IMG/VR virus record: IMGVR_UViG_2925891887_000007
Source of the DNA: a virus
Lineage: Duplodnaviria; Heunggongvirae; Uroviricota; Caudoviricetes
Direction: 5' to 3' (one strand)
DNA: 46,375 nucleotides
Notes under the pieces: model-generated
Told to the model about the DNA's origin: nothing
Seen by the model: the letters and a program-made list of their open reading frames with translations, nothing else
The model's database searches: none
Part shown: positions 36,257-45,541 of the stretch, piece by piece
How positions within the stretch are numbered: position 1 is the first letter of the stretch
How the letters are laid out: every line of letters starts with the position of its first letter
Made by a program: the position numbers and the translations under genes

Positions 36257-39200
36257 ATGGGTAAAGGCAGCAGTAAGGGGCATACCCCGCGCGAAGCAAA
36301 GGACAACCTGAAGTCCACGCAGTTGCTGAGTGTGATCGATGCCATCAGCGAAGGGCCGGTTGAAGGTCCGGTGGATGGATTAAAAAGCGTGCTGCTGAAC
36401 AGTACACCGGTGCTGGACAGTGAGGGGAATACTAACATCTCCGGTGTCACGGTGGTGTTCCGGGCAGGTGAGCAGGAACAGACACCGCCGGAGGGATTTG
36501 AATCATCAGGTTCCGAGACGGTACTGGGTACGGAAGTGAAATACGACACGCCGATCACCCGGACCATCACGTCGGCAAACATTGACCGTCTGCGCTTTAC
36601 CTTCGGTGTGCAGGCACTGGTGGAAACCACCTCAAAGGGGGACAGGAATCCGTCGGAAGTTCGCCTGCTGGTTCAGATACAACGTAACGGTGGCTGGGTG
36701 ACGGAAAAAGACATCACCATTAAGGGCAAAACCACCTCGCAGTATCTGGCCTCGGTAGTGGTGGATAATTTGCCGCCGCGCCCGTTCAACATCCGGATGC
36801 GCAGGATGACGCCGGACAGCACCACAGACCAGCTGCAGAACAAAACGCTCTGGTCGTCATACACCGAAATCATCGATGTGAAACAGTGCTACCCGAACAC
36901 GGCACTGGTCGGCGTACAGGTGGATTCGGAGCAGTTCGGCAGCCAGCAGGTGAGCCGTAATTATCATCTGCGCGGGCGCATTCTGCAGGTGCCGTCGAAC
37001 TATAACCCGCAGACGCGGCAATACAGCGGTATCTGGGACGGAACGTTTAAGCCAGCATACAGCAACAACATGGCCTGGTGTCTGTGGGATATGCTGACCC
37101 ATCCGCGCTACGGCATGGGGAAACGTCTTGGTGCGGCGGATGTGGACAAATGGGCGCTGTATGTCATCGGCCAGCATTGCGATCAGTCGGTGCCGGACGG
37201 TTTTGGCGGCACGGAGCCGCGCATCACCTGTAATGCGTACCTGACCACACAGCGTAAGGCGTGGGATGTGCTCAGTGATTTCTGCTCGGCGATGCGCTGT
37301 ATGCCGGTATGGAACGGGCAGACGCTGACGTTCGTGCAGGACCGACCGTCGGATAAGGCGTGGACCTATAACCGCAGTAATGTGGTGATGCCGGATGATG
37401 GCGCGCCGTTCCGCTACAGCTTCAGCGCCCTGAAAGACCGCCATAATGCCGTTGAGGTGAACTGGATTGACCCGAACAACGGCTGGGAGACGGCGACAGA
37501 GCTTGTGGAGGATACGCAGGCCATTGCCCGTTACGGTCGTAACGTCACGAAGATGGATGCCTTTGGCTGTACCAGCCGGGGGCAGGCACACCGCGCCGGG
37601 CTGTGGCTGATTAAAACGGAGCTGCTGGAAACGCAGACCGTGGATTTCAGCGTGGGTGCCGAAGGGCTTCGCCATGTGCCGGGTGATGTTATTGAAATCT
37701 GCGATGATGACTATGCCGGTATCAGCACCGGCGGGCGCGTGCTGGCGGTGAACAGCCAGACCCGGACGCTGACGCTCGACCGTGAAATCACGCTGCCATC
37801 CTCCGGTACCACGCTGATAAGCCTGGTTGACGGAAGTGGCAATCCGGTCAGCGTGGAGGTCCAGTCCGTCACCGACGGCGTGAAGGTAAAAGTGAGCCGT
37901 GTTCCTGACGGCGTTGCCGGATACAGCGTATGGGGGCTGAAGCTGCCGACGCTGCGCCAGCGCCTGTTCCGCTGCGTGAGTATCCGTGAGAACGATGACG
38001 GCACGTATGCCATCACCGCCGTGCAGCATGTACCGGAAAAAGAGGCCATCGTGGATAACGGGGCGCACTTTGACGGCGACCAGAGCGGCACGGTGAATGG
38101 TGTCACGCCGCCAGCAGTGCAGCATCTGACCGCAGAAGTCACCGCAGACAGCGGGGAATACCAGGTGCTGGCCCGCTGGGACACGCCGAAGGTGGTGAAG
38201 GGCGTGAGCTTCCTGCTTCGCCTGACCGTGGCAGCGGATGACGGCAGTGAGCGGCTGGTCAGCACGGCCCGGACGACGGAAACCACATACCGCTTCACGC
38301 AACTGGCGCTGGGGAATTACAGGCTGACAGTCCGGGCGGTAAATGCGTGGGGACAGCAGGGCGATCCGGCATCGGTATCGTTCCGGATTGCCGCACCGGC
38401 AGCGCCGTCTCGGATTGAGCTGACGCCGGGCTATTTTCAGATAACCGCCACGCCGCATCTTGCGGTTTATGATCCGACGGTACAGTTTGAGTTCTGGTTC
38501 TCGGAAAAGCGGATTGCGGATATCAGGCAGGTTGAAACCACAGCACGCTATCTTGGTACGGCGTTGTACTGGATAGCCGCCAGTATCAATATCAGGCCGG
38601 GCCATAATTATTATTTTTACGTTCGCAGTGTGAACACCGTTGGCAAATCGGCATTCGTGGAGGCTGTTGGTCAGCCGAGTGATGACGCATCCGGCTATCT
38701 GGATTTTTTCAAAGGCGAGATAGGGAAAACCCATCTGGCTCAGGAGCTGTGGACGCAGATTGATAACGGTCAGCTTGCGCCTGACCTGGCTGAAATCAGG
38801 ACATCCATTACGGATGTCAGCAATGAAATCACACAGACCGTCAATAAGAAACTGGAAGACCAGAGTGCGGCAATCCAGCAGATACAGAAAGTTCAGGTTG
38901 ATACAAATAATAACCTGAACAGCATGTGGGCTGTGAAGCTGCAGCAGATGCAGGACGGACGCCTTTATATCGCGGGTATCGGTGCCGGTATTGAGAATAC
39001 GCCAGCAGGAATGCAGAGTCAGGTGCTGCTGGCGGCAGACAGGATTGCGATGATTAATCCTGCGAATGGCAACACAAAGCCGATGTTTGTTGGTCAGGGC
39101 GATCAGATATTCATGAACGAAGTGTTCCTGAAATATCTGACGGCTCCCACCATTACCAGCGGCGGTAATCCTCCGGCATTTTCCCTGACACCGGACGGGC

Positions 39201-39736
39201 GGCTGACGGCGAAAAATGCCGATATCAGCGGTAACGTGAATGCGAACTCCGGGACGCTCAACAATGTCACGATAAATGAGAACTGTCAGATTAAAGGGAA
39301 ACTGTCAGCCAACCAGATTGAAGGCGATATTGTCAAAACAGTGGGTAAGGCTTTCCCGCGGGACTCCCGGGCACCGGAGCGGTGGCCATCAGGGACCATT
39401 ACCGTCAGGATTTATGACGATCAGCCGTTTGACCGGCAGATTGTTATTCCCGCGGTGGCGTTTCGTGGCGCTAAACATGAGCGGGAGAATAACGATATTT
39501 ATTCGTCATGCCGCCTGATAGTGAAGAAAAACGGTGCTGAAATTTATAACCGTACCGCGCTGGATAATACGCTGGTTTATACAGGTGTTATTGATATGCC
39601 TGCTGGTCGCGGTCACATGACGCTGGAGTTTTCGGTATCAGCGTGGCTGGTAAATGACTGGTATCCCACAGCCAGTATCAGTGATTTGCTGGTTGTGGTG
39701 ATGAAGAAATCCACAGCAGGTATCACGATTAGCTGA
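36257..39736 (+). CDS. J: Central tail fibre / host specificity protein J
   Basis: 1159 aa; [34 protein letters not shown] matches lambda gpJ through most of its length. Confidence 0.95.
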
Positions 39737-39804: not shown

Positions 39805-40404
39805 ATGCGTAAAGTTTGTGCAGCCATTTTGTCCGCAGCCATCTGTCTGGCCGTATCCGGTGCGCCTGCATGGGCGTCTGAGCAGCAGGCCACGCTGAGC
39901 GCAGGGTATCTTCATGCCCGTACGAACGCTTCCGGCAGCGATAATCTGAACGGGATTAACGTGAAATACCGTTATGAGTTTACGGACACGCTGGGGCTGA
40001 TTACGTCATTCAGTTATGCCAACGCTGAAGATGAGCAAAAAACGCATTACAGCGATACCCGCTGGCATGAGGATTCCGTGCGTAATCGCTGGTTCAGCGT
40101 GATGGCGGGGCCGTCTGTGCGCGTGAATGAATGGTTCAGCGCGTATGCGATGGCGGGTGTGGCTTACAGCCGTGTGTCGACTTTCTCCGGGGATTATCTC
40201 CGCGTAACTGACAACAAGGGGAAAAAGCACGATGTGCTGACCGGAAGTGATGACGGTCGCCACAGCAACACGTCTCTGGCGTGGGGAGCTGGCGTGCAGT
40301 TTAACCCGACCGAATCCGTGGCCATTGATGTCGCTTATGAAGGCTCCGGCAGTGGTGACTGGCGCACTGACGGGTTCATCGTGGCTGTTGGTTATAAATT
40401 CTGA
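39805..40404 (+). CDS. lom: Outer membrane protein Lom (Ail/Lom family)
   Basis: Signal peptide; C-terminal DVAYEGSGSGDWRTDGFIVAVGYKF matches lambda Lom. Confidence 0.9.
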   Translation: MRKVCAAILSAAICLAVSGAPAWASEQQATLSAGYLHARTNASGSDNLNGINVKYRYEFTDTLGLITSFSYANAEDEQKTHYSDTRWHEDSVRNRWFSVMAGPSVRVNEWFSAYAMAGVAYSRVSTFSGDYLRVTDNKGKKHDVLTGSDDGRHSNTSLAWGAGVQFNPTESVAIDVAYEGSGSGDWRTDGFIVAVGYKF

Positions 40405-40430
40405 TTAGCCAGGTAACACAGTGTTATGAC

Positions 40431-40458
40431 AGCCCGCCGGTTCAGGCGGGCTTTTTTG
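40431..40458 (+). terminator. Rho-independent terminator after lom
   Basis: AGCCCGCCGGTTCAGGCGGGCT plus TTTTTT. Confidence 0.6.
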
Positions 40459-40468
40459 TGGGGTGAAT

Positions 40469-43400
40469 ATGGCAGTAAAAATTTCAGGTGTACTGAAAGA
40501 CGGCACAGGAAAACCGGTACAGAACTGCACAATCCAGCTGAAAGCAAAACGTAACAGTACCACGGTGGTGGTGAACACGCTGGCATCTGAAAATCCGGAT
40601 GAAGCCGGGCGTTACAGTATGGACGTTGAGTACGGTCAGTACAGCGTTATTCTGTTGGTGGAAGGATTCCCGCCGTCACATGCCGGGACCATCACAGTGT
40701 ATGAAGATTCCCGACCCGGTACGCTGAATGATTTTCTCGGTGCCATGACGGAGGATGATGCCCGTCCGGAGGCACTGCGCCGTTTTGAGCTGATGGTGGA
40801 AGAGGTGGCGCGTAACGCGTCCGTGGTGGCACAGAACACGGCAGCCGCGAAGAAGTCAGCCAGTGATGCCAGCACATCAGCCCGTGAGGCGGCAACCCAT
40901 GCGACTGATGCTGCAGGCTCAGCACGCGCAGCCAGCACGTCAGCCGGACAGGCCGCGTCGTCGGCTCAGTCAGCGACTTCCAGCGCAGGAACGGCATCAA
41001 CAAAGGCCACTGAAGCATCAAAAAGTGCTGCCGCTGCAGAGTCCTCAAAAAGCGCGGCAGCTACCAGTGCCAGTGCCGCAAAAACGTCAGAAACGAATGC
41101 TGCAGCGTCACAACAATCAGCAGCCACTTCTGCATCCACCGCGACTACGAAAGCGTCAGAAGCTGCCACCTCAGCCCGGGATGCGGCGGCTTCAAAAGAG
41201 GCGGCAAAATCATCAGAAACGAACGCATCCTCGAGCGCCAGTAGCGCAGCTTCCTCGGCAACAGCGGCAGGAAATTCCGCGAAGGCGGCAAAAACGTCAG
41301 AGACGAACGCCAGGTCTTCTGAAACGGCAGCGGGACAGAGCGCCTCGGCTGCGGCAGGCTCAAAAACAGCGGCTGCGTCGTCTGCCAGTGCAGCGTCAAC
41401 AAGTGCCGGGCAGGCCTCAGCCAGTGCTAGCGCCGCCGGAAAATCGGCAGAAAGCGCCGCATCGTCTGCTTCAACAGCCACAACGAAGGCTGGCGAAGCC
41501 ACTGAACAGGCCAGCGCAGCAGCGAGGTCTGCTTCCGCAGCGAAGACATCCGAAACGAACGCGAAAGCGTCGGAAACCAGCGCAGAATCCTCAAAAACGG
41601 CTGCCGCATCGTCAGCCAGTTCGGCGTCGTCATCGGCATCATCTGCGTCTGCTTCAAAAGATGAGGCGACCAGACAGGCGTCAGCAGCGAAGGGTAGCGC
41701 CACGACGGCATCCACGAAGGCGACAGAGGCAGCTGGCAGTGCGACGGCAGCAGCTCAGAGCAAAAGTACGGCGGAATCCGCGGCAACGCGCGCTGAGACA
41801 GCGGCAAAACGGGCAGAGGATATTGCATCCGCCGTGGCGCTTGAGGATGCGAGCACGACGAAAAAGGGGATAGTACAGCTCAGCAGTGCGACCAACAGCA
41901 CTTCCGAGTCACTGGCGGCAACGCCAAAAGCCGTTAAGGCCGCGTATGACCTGGCTAACGGGAAATACACCGCACAGGATGCAACGACAGCACAGAAAGG
42001 GATAATCCAGCTAAGCAGCGCGACCAACAGCACGTCTGAAACGCTGGCGGCAACGCCAAAGGCAGTAAAATCAGCCTATGACAATGCAGAGAAACGTCTG
42101 CAGAAAGACCAGAACGGCGCTGATATACCCGATAAGGGACGCTTCCTGAACAACATTAACGCGGTCAGTAAAACAGACTTTGCTGATAAGCGTGGTATGC
42201 GTTATGTGCGGGTTAACGCTCCTGCAGGTGCAACATCTGGAAAATATTACCCTGTTGTTGTTATGCGTTCTGCTGGCTCAGTAAGCGAACTGGCATCAAG
42301 GGTCATTATCACCACGGCAACGCGAACCGCAGGCGATCCGATGAATAACTGCGAGTTTAACGGATTTGTTATGCCTGGTGGCTGGACTGACAGGGGGCGT
42401 TATGCTTATGGAATGTTCTGGCAATATCAAAACAATGAACGAGCCATCCACTCAATAATGATGAGTAATAAGGGCGATGATTTGCGCTCTGTGTTCTATG
42501 TTGATGGCGCTGCTTTCCCTGTTTTTGCGTTTATCGAAGATGGCCTGTCAATATCCGCACCTGGTGCTGATCTCGTTGTTAATGATACGACCTATAAGTT
42601 TGGGGCAACAAATCCAGCGACTGAATGTATCGCGGCGGACGTTATCCTTGATTTTAAGAGTGGGCGTGGTTTTTATGAGTCTCATTCGTTAATCGTTAAC
42701 GATAACTTGTCGTGCAAAAAACTTTTTGCCACAGACGAAATTGTAGCGCGTGGTGGTAATCAGATTCGAATGATAGGTGGGGAGTATGGGGCATTATGGC
42801 GTAATGATGGCGCTAAAACTTACCTGCTGCTTACCAATCAAGGTGATGTTTATGGTGGATGGAATACATTAAGACCGTTTGCTATTGATAACGCAACCGG
42901 CGAACTGGTTATTGGAACCAAGCTGTCTGCAAGTCTGAACGGTAACGCATTGACAGCAACAAAGCTGCAAACGCCAAGACTGGTTTCTGGGGTTGAGTTT
43001 GATGGTTCAAAAGATATTACTTTAACCGCCGCGCATGTGGCTGCTTTTGCCAGAAGGGCAACGGATACATATGCCGATGCGGATGGTGGCGTTCCCTGGA
43101 ATGCCGAATCAGGCGCTTACAATGTCACCCGCTCTGGCGACAGCTATATTCTGGTTAACTTCTATACCGGAGTCGGAAGTTGCCGGACCCTGCAGATGAA
43201 GGCGCATTACAGAAATGGTGGTCTGTTCTACCGTTCTTCAAGAGACGGTTATGGTTTTGAGGAAGACTGGGCAGAAGTTTATACCTCGAAAAATCTTCCA
43301 CCAGAAAGCTACCCAGTCGGCGCACCAATCCCGTGGCCATCAGATACCGTTCCGTCTGGTTATGCCCTGATGCAGGGGCAGACTTTTGACAAATCTGCCT

Positions 43401-43999
43401 ACCCGAAACTTGCAGCCGCTTATCCGTCAGGCGTGATCCCTGATATGCGTGGCTGGACGATTAAGGGCAAGCCCGCCAGTGGTCGTGCCGTATTGTCTCA
43501 GGAACAGGACGGCATAAAATCGCATACCCACAGCGCCAGCGCATCCAGTACTGATTTGGGGACGAAAACCACATCGTCGTTTGATTACGGCACTAAATCC
43601 ACGAATAACACTGGTGCGCATACCCATAGTTTAAGTGGCAGCACGAATGCAGCTGGTAATCACAGCCATAGAGATGGCCGTCGATTTAACCCCAGTGTTT
43701 TTAAAGATACTTATCAATATGGTTATACAAGCTCAGGTCAAAATACCTGGGGTGTACAAGGCTCAGTAGGTATGTCTACGGGGGCGTTAGCTAATACCAG
43801 TACAGATGGTAACCATAGCCACTCACTGTCCGGCACAGCAGCATCTGCAGGTGCACACGCACATACTGTCGGTATTGGTGCACACACGCACTCCGTTGCG
43901 ATTGGTTCACATGGACACACCATCACCGTTAACGCTGCTGGTAACGCGGAAAACACCGTCAAAAACATCGCATTTAACTATATTGTGAGGCTTGCATAA
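40469..43999 (+). CDS. stf: Side tail fibre protein Stf (extended mosaic form)
   Basis: N-terminus [26 protein letters not shown] and C-terminal His-rich HxH region with [11 protein letters not shown] match lambda Stf; long Ala/Ser-rich repeat region. Confidence 0.9.
41865..42082 (+). repeat. Direct duplication (about 86 bp units, 132 bp period) inside stf
   Basis: [29 protein letters not shown] and [29 protein letters not shown] coded by near-identical DNA at 41865-41950 and 41997-42082. Confidence 0.6.
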
Positions 44000-44580
44000 T
44001 GGCATTCAGAATGAGTGAACAACCACGGACCATAAAAATTTATAATCTGCTGGCCGGAACTAATGAATTTATTGGTGAAGGTGACGCATATATTCCGCCT
44101 CATACAGGTCTGCCAGCAAACAGTACCGATATTGCACCGCCAGATATTCCTGCTGGCTTTGTGGCTGTTTTCAACAGTGATGAGGCATCGTGGCATCTCG
44201 TTGAAGATCATCGGGGAAAAACCGTCTATGACGTGGCTTCCGGCGACGCGTTATTTATTTCTGAACTTGGCTCGTTACCGGAAAATGTCACCTGGTTATC
44301 GCCGGAAGGGGAATATCAGAAGTGGAACGGCACAGCCTGGGTGAAGGATACGGAAGCAGAAAAACTGTTCCGGATCCGGGAGGCGGAAGAAACAAAAAAC
44401 AACCTGATGCAGGTAGCCAGTGAGCATATTGCGCCGCTTCAGGATGCTGCAGATCTGGAAATTGCAACGGAGGAAGAAATCTCGTTGCTGGAAGCCTGGA
44501 AGAAGTATCGGGTGTTGCTGAACCGTGTTAATACAACAACTGCACCGGATATTGAATGGCCAGTAGCACCTATAGGGTAA
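43999..44580 (+). CDS. tfa: Tail fibre assembly protein Tfa
   Basis: [58 protein letters not shown] matches lambda Tfa. Confidence 0.92.
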
Positions 44581-44843: not shown

Positions 44844-45347
44844 TTATTGATAGTGTTTTATGTTCAGATAATGCCCGATGACTTTGTCATGCAGCTCCAC
44901 CGATTTTGAGAACGACAGCGACTTCCGTCCCAGCCGTGCCAGGTGCTGCCTCAGATTCAGGTTATGCCGCTCAATTCGCTGCGTATATCGCTTGCTGATT
45001 ACGTGCAGCTTTCCCTTCAGGCGGGATTCATACAGCGGCCAGCCATCCGTCATCCATATCACCACGTCAAAGGGTGACAGCAGGCTCATAAGACGCCCCA
45101 GTGTCGCCATAGTGCGTTCACCGAATACGTGCGCAACAACCGTCTTCCGGAGCCTGTCATACGCGTAAAACAGCCAGCGCTGGCGCGATTTAGCCCCGAC
45201 GTATCCCCACTGTTCGTCCATTTCCGCGCAGACGATGACGTCACTGCCCGGCTGTATGCGCGAGGTTACCGACTGCGGCCTGAGTTTTTTAAATGGCGGA
45301 AAATCGTGTTGAGGCCAACGCCCATAATGCGGGCGGTTGCCCGGCAT
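44844..45347 (-). CDS. insB: IS1 transposase InsB frame
   Basis: 167-aa [30 protein letters not shown] matching IS1 InsB. Confidence 0.9.
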
Positions 45348-45541
45348 CCAACGCCATTCATGGCCATATCAATGATTTTCTGGTGCGTACCGGGTTGAGA
45401 AGCGGTGTAAGTGAACTGCAGTTGCCATGTTTTACGGCAGTGAGAGCAGAGATAGCGCTGATGTCCGGCGGTGCTTTTGCCGTTACGCACCACCCCGTCA
45501 GTAGCTGAACAGGAGGGACAGCTGATAGAAACAGAAGCCAC
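45266..45541 (-). CDS. insA: IS1 InsA
   Basis: 91-aa [45 protein letters not shown]. Confidence 0.9.

Follow-up and report, generated by a model that had tools for sequence, protein, structure and literature searches.

The side tail fibre gene (stf) of a lambdoid Escherichia coli prophage lies at positions 40469-43999 of the window, i.e., of the whole 46,375-nt stretch of viral DNA analysed here, and its product was reported in a preliminary description to be about 400 residues longer than the Stf of lambda, with an additional central block and a duplicated 44-residue unit. Did this length arise by insertion and duplication in the present lineage, or is the gene one of the known forms of a family that exchanges its modules? 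Our analysis points to the latter. The gene very probably encodes the widespread long form of the fibre, of the type of StfR from the K-12 Rac prophage, in an allele with two Phage_fiber_2 units. Both the architecture and the exact protein are already known, and they represent neither a new insertion nor a fresh duplication.

The reading frame of stf is intact from an ATG and comprises 1176 codons and a stop (the list of open reading frames also offers a GTG upstream, at 40463, that would extend the product to 1178 aa). The RefSeq protein WP_071940856.1, annotated in a genome that is 100% identical, has the same CDS limits. The neighbouring genes, on the + strand like all the features described below, follow the order J-lom-stf-tfa of a lambdoid prophage, which places the gene where a lambda-type Stf is expected. 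These are J, the central tail fibre (36257-39736, 1159 aa, named gpJ by RefSeq in the identical prophage), lom (39805-40404; Pfam Ail_Lom, E=2.1e-124), and, downstream, a tail fibre assembly chaperone gene, tfa, of the tfaQ type (43999-44580, 193 aa; Pfam PF02413 Caudo_TAP, E=3e-42; tfaQ in RefSeq), whose start overlaps the stop codon of stf. The 3' end of stf and tfa together are 91% identical to lambda at the nucleotide level. An IS1 lies directly downstream of tfa. Searches of Stf and Tfa against NCBIfam assigned no family, and the Pfam domain set of Stf consists of phage_tail_N, two stretches of Phage_fiber_2, Gp34_trimer and Collar. The first of these is the N-terminal attachment domain (aa 1-134, 40469-40870; PF08400, E=1.7e-71), whose first 94 residues match lambda Stf in PDB 9e7m (E=2.1e-51). 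In Ur-lambda, the N-terminal domain of Stf forms a collar around the tail (PMC12617516).

The Stf of Ur-lambda type (774 aa, from LC730321; split in lambda PaPa into orf-401 and orf-314) is 402 aa shorter than the protein studied here, which bears out the first estimate of the difference. The match of both ends to lambda was also confirmed by protein alignment (87% identity for aa 1-303 and 88% for aa 945-1036), with 71% identity over the whole tip in BLASTP. The two proteins share the N-terminal collar domain, an Ala/Ser heptad rod with Phage_fiber_2 at its end, the Collar domain with a tip rich in His-x-His motifs, and the Tfa chaperone. They differ in the number of heptads (33 in Ur-lambda, 48 here), of Phage_fiber_2 units (one and two) and of His-x-His motifs (eight and seven), and in the segment that precedes the tip. 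The extra length can be broken down accordingly: the rod contributes +105 aa (aa 304-408, 15 heptads), Phage_fiber_2 contributes +44 aa (one additional unit), the centre contributes +269 aa net, with aa 535-944 (410 aa) in place of the hinge and distal segment of lambda (aa 386-526, 141 aa), and the tip contributes -16 aa. The central block initially described as additional thus has no lambda counterpart, but it replaces 141 aa and explains only the 269 residues of the centre, not those added by the rod and by the unit. Since lambda has a segment of its own at this site, the alignment indicates that the block is swapped for the lambda hinge and distal segment, not inserted beside them.

The rod spans aa 125-460 (40841-41848) and is rich in Ala, Ser and Thr (38% Ala, 25% Ser). 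Compared with itself at offsets divisible by 7 aa, it gives an identity of 0.42, against 0.20 at the other offsets, a difference that was reached in none of 1000 shuffles, and the spacings of direct repeats in its DNA are multiples of 21 nt. At the level of sequence, this is the coiled-coil rod of a lambda-type Stf, presumably trimeric and proximal in the fibre. Global protein alignment places the 15 heptads absent from lambda at aa 304-408 (41378-41692), whereas blastn puts the breakpoints at 41377 and 41682, the exact position being ambiguous in such a repetitive region. We rejected the idea that these heptads are a recent copy of an adjacent rod segment: their best in-register identity is 54% in protein and 50% in DNA, close to the general in-register background of the rod (0.42 aa identity).

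The rod is followed by a tandem pair of units of 44 aa (132 nt) that are both covered by Pfam PF03406 Phage_fiber_2 (two stretches, E=3.9e-37, 126 bits for a cut-off of 22). Unit 1 is of the internal type (aa 466-509, 41864-41995) and ends in [19 protein letters not shown], and unit 2 is of the terminal type (aa 510-553, 41996-42127) and ends in [19 protein letters not shown]. The K codons with which they begin, at 41864 and 41996, are one base upstream of the starts first given (41865 and 41997). Among the internal repeats of stf, this pair ranks first: the unit cores are identical at 69 of 86 nt (80%), whereas 100 codon shuffles gave 44.7 on average and never more than 48. Over the whole 132-nt periods the identity drops to 65% (86/132), with exact matches of at most 14 and 17 nt. 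The pair is therefore real, but its description as a direct duplication at the DNA level was overstated. Tandem Repeats Finder reported nothing in 40000-44500, two copies at 65-80% identity being below its threshold. An assembly artefact was rejected as the source of the repeat, both because the units differ at 20% of the core positions and because stf is 100% identical in at least nine complete genomes among the matches listed.

The number of units varies among fibres. The two-unit junction was found in 1926 of 5426 complete E. coli genomes, and in most of these carriers it is 95-100% identical; the two-unit segment is also present in P2-like phages, with 82-88% aa identity. In a spread sample of 60 records, in which the best place of each record was considered (a sample, not a census), about 26 had two units, about 20 had a single one (exactly 132 nt fewer) and 11 diverged after unit 1. 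The fibre of the P2-like Yersinia phage P37 has three. The single-unit alleles are chimeras of the 5' part of unit 1 and the 3' part of unit 2, with at least two different switch points, and they lack the tail of unit 1 ([19 protein letters not shown]); hence, duplication in such alleles did not give rise to the two-unit form. The structure of the joints, not a phylogeny, suggests the direction of change between one-unit and two-unit alleles. Among the other alleles examined, at least four different continuations come after one and the same unit core. We conclude that the Phage_fiber_2 unit is a conserved joint at which exchangeable modules of the fibre recombine, not a recent duplication.

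The central cassette (aa 554-944, 391 aa, 42128-43300) occupies the site of the hinge and distal domain of lambda Stf, in which protein alignment finds no counterpart to it. Parts of it are common to T5-like, rV5-like, T4 gp34, Mu S and P2-like fibres. Its first ~190 aa (aa ~570-745) are 30-36% identical to the lateral fibres of T5-like and rV5-like phages; aa 570-745 gave no Pfam or PDB sequence match, and a profile search of PDB added none. Further on is a domain of the C-terminal trimerisation type of T4 gp34 (aa 707-806, 42587-42886; Pfam PF21446, 95.6 bits for a cut-off of 27), and the gp34 structures in PDB 4uxe and 5nxf match aa 750-821. The end of the cassette is a Mu S-like segment (aa 857-951, 43037-43321; residues 322-415 of the Mu tail fibre S in PDB 8ju3), a match that was recovered when the block was searched by itself and when a profile was used, and the cassette is flanked by Mu S-like segments (PDB 5yvq and 8ju3). 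The sole new match in the PDB profile search with the cassette alignment was a weak one to lambda gpI (E=0.0044), probably spurious. The AlphaFold2 model of aa 535-950, built from a shallow alignment of 10 sequences, was unusable (mean pLDDT 40.7, pTM 0.37). The Stf of mEp460 shares the sequence exactly through aa 566 and again from aa 920 onwards, but has another cassette in between. Only 20 phage records cover at least 80% of the block.

The distal tip (aa 946-1176, 43304-43996) is homologous to that of T4 gp37 (PDB 2xgf, E=4.9e-86). It includes Pfam Collar PF07484 at aa 951-998 and seven His-x-His motifs (eight in lambda, seven in StfR). In T4 gp37 (2xgf), such motifs coordinate metal ions and the head domain binds the receptor. 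By analogy with this structure, the tip of Stf may coordinate metal and would be the receptor-binding end of the fibre. Within the tip, aa 1068-1108 (43670-43792) differ from StfR, lambda and T4 gp37: they show gaps and 18% identity in the alignment with StfR and align poorly to 2xgf. This segment is a likely specificity determinant. A literature search on the receptor or host range of StfR-type fibres found nothing relevant.

StfR of the K-12 Rac prophage (b1372, NP_415890.2, 1120 aa) is collinear with the protein over its whole length (98% identity for aa 1-469, 99% for aa 514-1067). The two proteins agree in rod, central cassette and tip type, and stfR too is followed by a tfa gene. The alignment has gaps only in one 44-aa unit and in the tip segment aa 1068-1108. 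The period missing from StfR, and also from the Stf of the phage PhiR34_1, corresponds to aa 470-513 of the window protein, the exact placement within the repeat being arbitrary; the one unit carried by StfR is a chimera of units 1 and 2. Its surroundings differ: StfR is in a defective prophage, adjoins an lomR disrupted by IS5 and is followed by pinR after tfa, where we find IS1. The Stf of the Escherichia phage PhiR34_1 (XSB42368.1, 1134 aa) is 99-100% identical in protein, including the tip, and 97% in DNA. It lacks exactly 44 aa, i.e., one unit, and is encoded in the order J-lom-stf-tfa, with a serine recombinase downstream of tfa. The phages Kati, ev099, 2H10 and mEp332, compared at the DNA level only, cover 92-99% of the gene at 95-97% identity, and the cassette is present in all of them, as in StfR and PhiR34_1. 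At least 80% of stf is present in 1230 of the 5426 complete E. coli genomes (about a quarter).

The likeness to other long fibres is more restricted. Only the gp37-tip and gp34 trimerisation modules are common to Stf and the long tail fibre of T4; the remainder of the protein, the attachment to a siphovirus tail and the fibre made of a single polypeptide are lambda-type, unlike T4. The fibres of the myoviruses P2 (H) and Mu (S) have tandem Phage_fiber_2 units of both subtypes, e.g., in P37 (720 aa, with its three units), but they attach to the baseplate through another N-terminal domain, lack the heptad rod and differ in the distal part.

These comparisons bear on the alternative histories of the locus. 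A recent tandem duplication of the 132-nt segment, in place and in the present lineage, would leave an unstable repeat with copy-number variation among reads. It would account for the tandem pair of 132-nt period, whose similarity is well beyond chance, and alleles that differ by exactly one unit do exist. Yet the copies are not near-identical, neither in the core nor over the period, and share no exact stretch of pairing length. Moreover, the 3' tail of unit 1 is absent from the single-unit alleles from which it would have to be copied, and the junction is conserved across most of its E. coli carriers and recognisable in P2-like phages. The minimal pairing lengths quoted are 31-34 bp for RecA and 23-27 bp for Red-beta (PMC3945230); the longest identity, of 17 nt, is below both, and read-level copy-number heterogeneity is therefore not expected. 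We find this scenario scarcely credible. The claim that the repeat is recombination-prone holds on evolutionary time only, for which the one-, two- and three-unit alleles and their chimeric joints argue. We give just as little credence to the insertion of a foreign domain into a lambda-type Stf that would have created a new architecture specific to this prophage. The cassette has no counterpart in lambda, and its domains are otherwise found in T4 gp34, Mu S and T5-like fibres, but the lambda segment at the same place makes this a swap. The block is also no departure from known Stf variants: StfR and PhiR34_1 both have it, and this collinearity refutes the insertion as an event of this locus. 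The cassette is present, too, in isolated phages and in about a quarter of the genomes.

It could also be argued that stf is a relic, decaying in a cryptic prophage and no longer functional as a fibre, given the IS1 just downstream of tfa and the location of its close relative StfR in the defective Rac prophage, beside the disrupted lomR. We consider this very unlikely. The 1176-codon frame and the overlapping tfa are intact, the identical prophage retains undamaged J, L, K-like and I-like tail genes upstream, and a deposited phage genome (host listed: K-12) carries a Stf that is 99-100% identical apart from one unit.

We thus favour a fibre of the StfR-type long form that owes its length to the exchange of modules. 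If the homology with the Stf of Ur-lambda and with gp37 of T4 is a guide, three chains would assemble into one fibre, with the N-terminal domain (aa 1-134) docking it as a collar on the tail. The Ala/Ser coiled coil of 48 heptads (aa 125-460) would form the proximal rod, ~15 nm longer than in lambda for 15 more heptads at 0.15 nm per residue, and the two Phage_fiber_2 units (aa 466-553) would close it. The 391-aa cassette, with its gp34-like and Mu-S-like domains, would stand in for the lambda hinge and distal domain, and the tip, with its seven His-x-His motifs, would bind a cell-surface receptor once folded with the help of the downstream Tfa, which it is expected to need. The difference in length from lambda would result from module exchange at conserved joints, not from insertion in the present lineage. 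The Phage_fiber_2 core would be one such joint, after which different downstream cassettes are spliced, and recombination between units would shift their number (one, two or three) over evolutionary time. Lambda recombines with the stfR of Rac via Red-beta (PMC3945230). The virion of Ur-lambda has four trimeric Stf fibres and adsorbs faster via OmpC (PMC12617516); by analogy, the present Stf may assemble in the same number and favour adsorption through a receptor.

A bolder reading, which we regard as rather improbable, is that the numbers of units (one, two or three) and of heptads (33 or 48) are selected settings of length and hinge, and that aa ~570-745 are more than a spacer and form a second, uncharacterised binding domain. 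If so, these numbers would tune the reach of the fibre through the O-antigen or capsule of different hosts.

Descriptions of mosaic tail fibre genes that share motifs date back to the early 1990s, reportedly to Haggard-Ljungquist in 1992 and Sandmeier in 1994, and the stf locus is a textbook example of such genes. The mosaic receptor-binding evolution initially proposed for this gene is supported, but it is a long-known property of the gene family and is not specific to the locus. With the exact protein in RefSeq and the architecture that of K-12 StfR, the value of the locus as a discovery is low. It has some practical use in the position of its joints. One natural joint follows the Phage_fiber_2 core and the other immediately precedes the Collar domain, and they coincide with R393 and S528, the points at which engineered chimeras of lambda Stf were fused (PMC11338833). 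The alleles with one, two and three units provide natural examples of a joint that tolerates changes in length.

The side tail fibre gene (stf; 40469-43999, plus strand) is a single uninterrupted reading frame, 1176 codons long when counted from its ATG, or 1178 from an alternative GTG start two codons 5' of it. It is a common, already catalogued allele of the StfR type, i.e., that of the Stf homologue of the K-12 Rac prophage, and its repeated unit, already defined in Pfam for tail fibres, is a module joint whose number varies among alleles. A preliminary description had proposed an inserted domain and a fresh duplication; the underlying sequence features are real, but this interpretation is not borne out.

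The protein starts with a phage_tail_N domain (Pfam; aa 1-134, E=1.7e-71), and its aa 1-94 align with the chain of lambda Stf in PDB 9e7m. An Ala/Ser-rich rod (aa 125-460; 38% Ala, 25% Ser) has strict heptad periodicity, with a self-identity of 0.42 at multiple-of-seven offsets versus 0.20 elsewhere, a difference reached by none of 1000 shuffles. Two Phage_fiber_2 units (PF03406; aa 466-509 and 510-553) lead into a central cassette (aa 554-944), which includes a T4 gp34-type trimerisation domain (aa 707-806, PF21446; PDB 4uxe/5nxf match aa 750-821) and a Mu S-like end (aa 857-951; PDB 8ju3). The first ~190 cassette residues (aa ~570-745; window 42170-42700) had no match in Pfam or PDB sequence searches and are 30-36% identical to fibres of T5-like and rV5-like phages and of Vibrio phage phi 3. 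An AlphaFold2 model of the cassette, built from a shallow alignment, was unusable (pLDDT 40.7). NCBIfam gave no matching model for Stf or Tfa. The C-terminal tip is of the T4 gp37 type (aa 946-1176; 2xgf, E=4.9e-86); it carries a Collar domain and His-x-His motifs, of which there are seven here and in StfR but eight in lambda. Its segment aa 1068-1108 is unlike StfR, lambda and T4 and is the likely specificity determinant.

The protein exceeds the 774-aa Ur-lambda-type Stf (taken from LC730321) by 402 aa, which agrees with the ~400 residues initially described, and the ends match lambda as had been stated (87% identity over the first 303 aa, 88% over aa 945-1036; 71% for the whole tip by BLASTP). 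The difference comprises 105 aa of rod ahead of the first unit (aa 304-408, absent from lambda), one additional 44-aa Phage_fiber_2 unit, 269 aa in the central segment and a tip shorter by 16 aa. The central block, thought to be additional, does account for about two-thirds of this difference, but it replaces a lambda segment (410 aa, window aa 535-944, versus 141 aa, lambda aa 386-526) and is no insertion. The extra 105 aa of rod are exactly 15 heptads (48 versus 33 in lambda); a recent copy of a neighbouring rod segment was tested as their origin and rejected.

The idea of an inserted block also fails against known Stf variants, because StfR and the Stf of the deposited phage PhiR34_1 are collinear with the window protein and the gene recurs in other phages and in many genomes. 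StfR has the same architecture (98% identity over aa 1-469, 99% over aa 514-1067), but with one 44-aa unit fewer and a divergent tip segment. PhiR34_1 Stf is 99-100% identical and shorter by exactly 44 aa. The gene is present at 95-97% DNA identity in the isolated phages Kati, ev099, 2H10, mEp332 and Chlobot, and 1230 of the 5426 complete E. coli genomes contain at least 80% of it; at least nine complete E. coli genomes among the matches listed have all 3531 nt at 100% identity. In E. coli ARL09/232, a RefSeq CDS with exactly the same limits (WP_071940856.1, 'prophage tail fiber N-terminal domain-containing protein') is followed by tfaQ in a prophage adjoining ydfJ, the Qin site of K-12.

The tandem repeat is genuine, with two matches to PF03406, but its reading as a fresh duplication fails. 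The units (starts 41864 and 41996, offset 132 nt) are the gene's best internal repeat, with 69 of 86 nt identical; 100 codon shuffles gave 44.7 on average and never more than 48. They have a 29-aa core in common (26/29 identical) and diverge beyond it: unit 1 (41864-41995) is of an internal type and ends [19 protein letters not shown], unit 2 (41996-42127) is of a terminal type and ends [19 protein letters not shown]. Their DNA identity is 80% for the core but 65% for the whole period, with longest exact runs of 14 and 17 nt, and Tandem Repeats Finder passes over this diverged pair. A search with the inter-unit junction (41930-42030) matched 1926 of 5426 genomes over at least 80% of its length, in Stf-type genes and in genes annotated merely as phage tail protein, and the two-unit segment is covered to at least 80% in 242 phage records, including P2-like phages at 82-88% amino acid identity. 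The fibre of the P2-like Yersinia myovirus P37 (L006 2387-2782) has three tandem units of the same two subtypes (internal-internal-terminal), and then a P2-like cassette that the lambdoid mEp460 Stf also has.

Unit number varies: among 60 E. coli records taken as a spread sample, ~26 have two units, ~20 have a span exactly 132 nt shorter, and in 11 the sequence diverges beyond unit 1. StfR, PhiR34_1 and an O145 strain each have a single unit that is unit-1-like in its 5' part and unit-2-like in its 3' part, with the switch between unit nt 42 and 57; in strain B1S11 the switch falls between nt 36 and 42, and there is a further unit-1 patch. As the tail of unit 1 is missing from single-unit alleles, two-unit alleles cannot be their simple duplications, and the chimeric joints are what inter-unit recombination would be expected to produce. 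The single unit of lambda (L001 2581-2730) is patchy (unit-1-like 5', unit-2-like in the middle, unit-1-like again before its own hinge), which suggests repeated gene conversion among units.

At least five continuations follow the same unit core: another unit, the StfR cassette, a P2-like cassette (mEp460, FDAARGOS_1373, P37), the lambda hinge (lambda, E41-1) and an O157 type. The Stf of mEp460 and the window protein are the same up to aa 566 and again from aa 920, but their middle parts differ. This swap and the varied continuations argue that the Phage_fiber_2 unit acts as a conserved homology patch and site of module exchange. Engineered lambda Stf chimeras were fused at R393 and S528 (PMC11338833), i.e., just past the lambda unit and just ahead of the Collar domain, the same two joints as in the natural mosaic. 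The repeat had been called recombination-prone, which holds over evolutionary time; within one culture it should be stable, as its longest identity, 17 nt, is below the minimal efficient pairing lengths quoted for RecA (31-34 bp) and Red-beta (23-27 bp; PMC3945230). Experiments have shown that Red-beta lets lambda recombine with stfR of Rac and tfaQ of Qin at diverged homology (PMC3945230); cassettes would pass from one fibre to another in this way.

The Ur-lambda virion has four trimeric Stf fibres, each with a collar domain (residues 1-91), linker (92-101), proximal coiled coil (102-393), hinge (394-422), distal domain (423-525) and, after residue 525, a receptor-binding domain that binds OmpC (PMC12617516). 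Mapped by homology onto this model, the window Stf would retain the collar domain and tip, gain one unit at the rod end and have a larger cassette in place of hinge and distal domain, with Tfa, the tail fibre assembly protein, as the presumed folding chaperone for the tip. At a coiled-coil rise of 0.15 nm per residue, the proximal coiled coil, 15 heptads longer, would extend by ~15 nm.

Upstream of stf lie J (36257-39736, plus strand) and, between the two, lom (39805-40404, plus strand). J encodes 1159 aa versus 1132 in lambda, which suggests a different receptor-binding end of the central fibre. The start of tfa (43999-44580, plus strand, 193 aa) overlaps the stf stop codon; no pin-type invertase follows it in the window, whereas Rac, PhiR34_1 and mEp460 have one. 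Directly downstream is an IS1B-type element (insB/insA ORFs; 44844-45541, minus strand). The window, IS1 included, is 100% identical to NZ_CP195467.1, but ARL09/232 lacks the element despite its identical stf, so this insertion looks recent. Long ORFs in another frame or strand inside the rod (336 aa, 40863-41873, plus; 249 aa, 40966-41715, minus) resemble in kind the 'orf206b' annotated in lambda; they probably result from the repetitive GC-rich codon pattern and are not genes. Some public records of fragments or fusions of this fibre (database matches P0034, P0037, P0038, P0040 and P0112) carry names such as 'short-chain fatty acid transporter, partial', 'terminase large subunit' or 'ATP-dependent Clp protease proteolytic subunit 1', evidently mis-annotations or fused gene calls.
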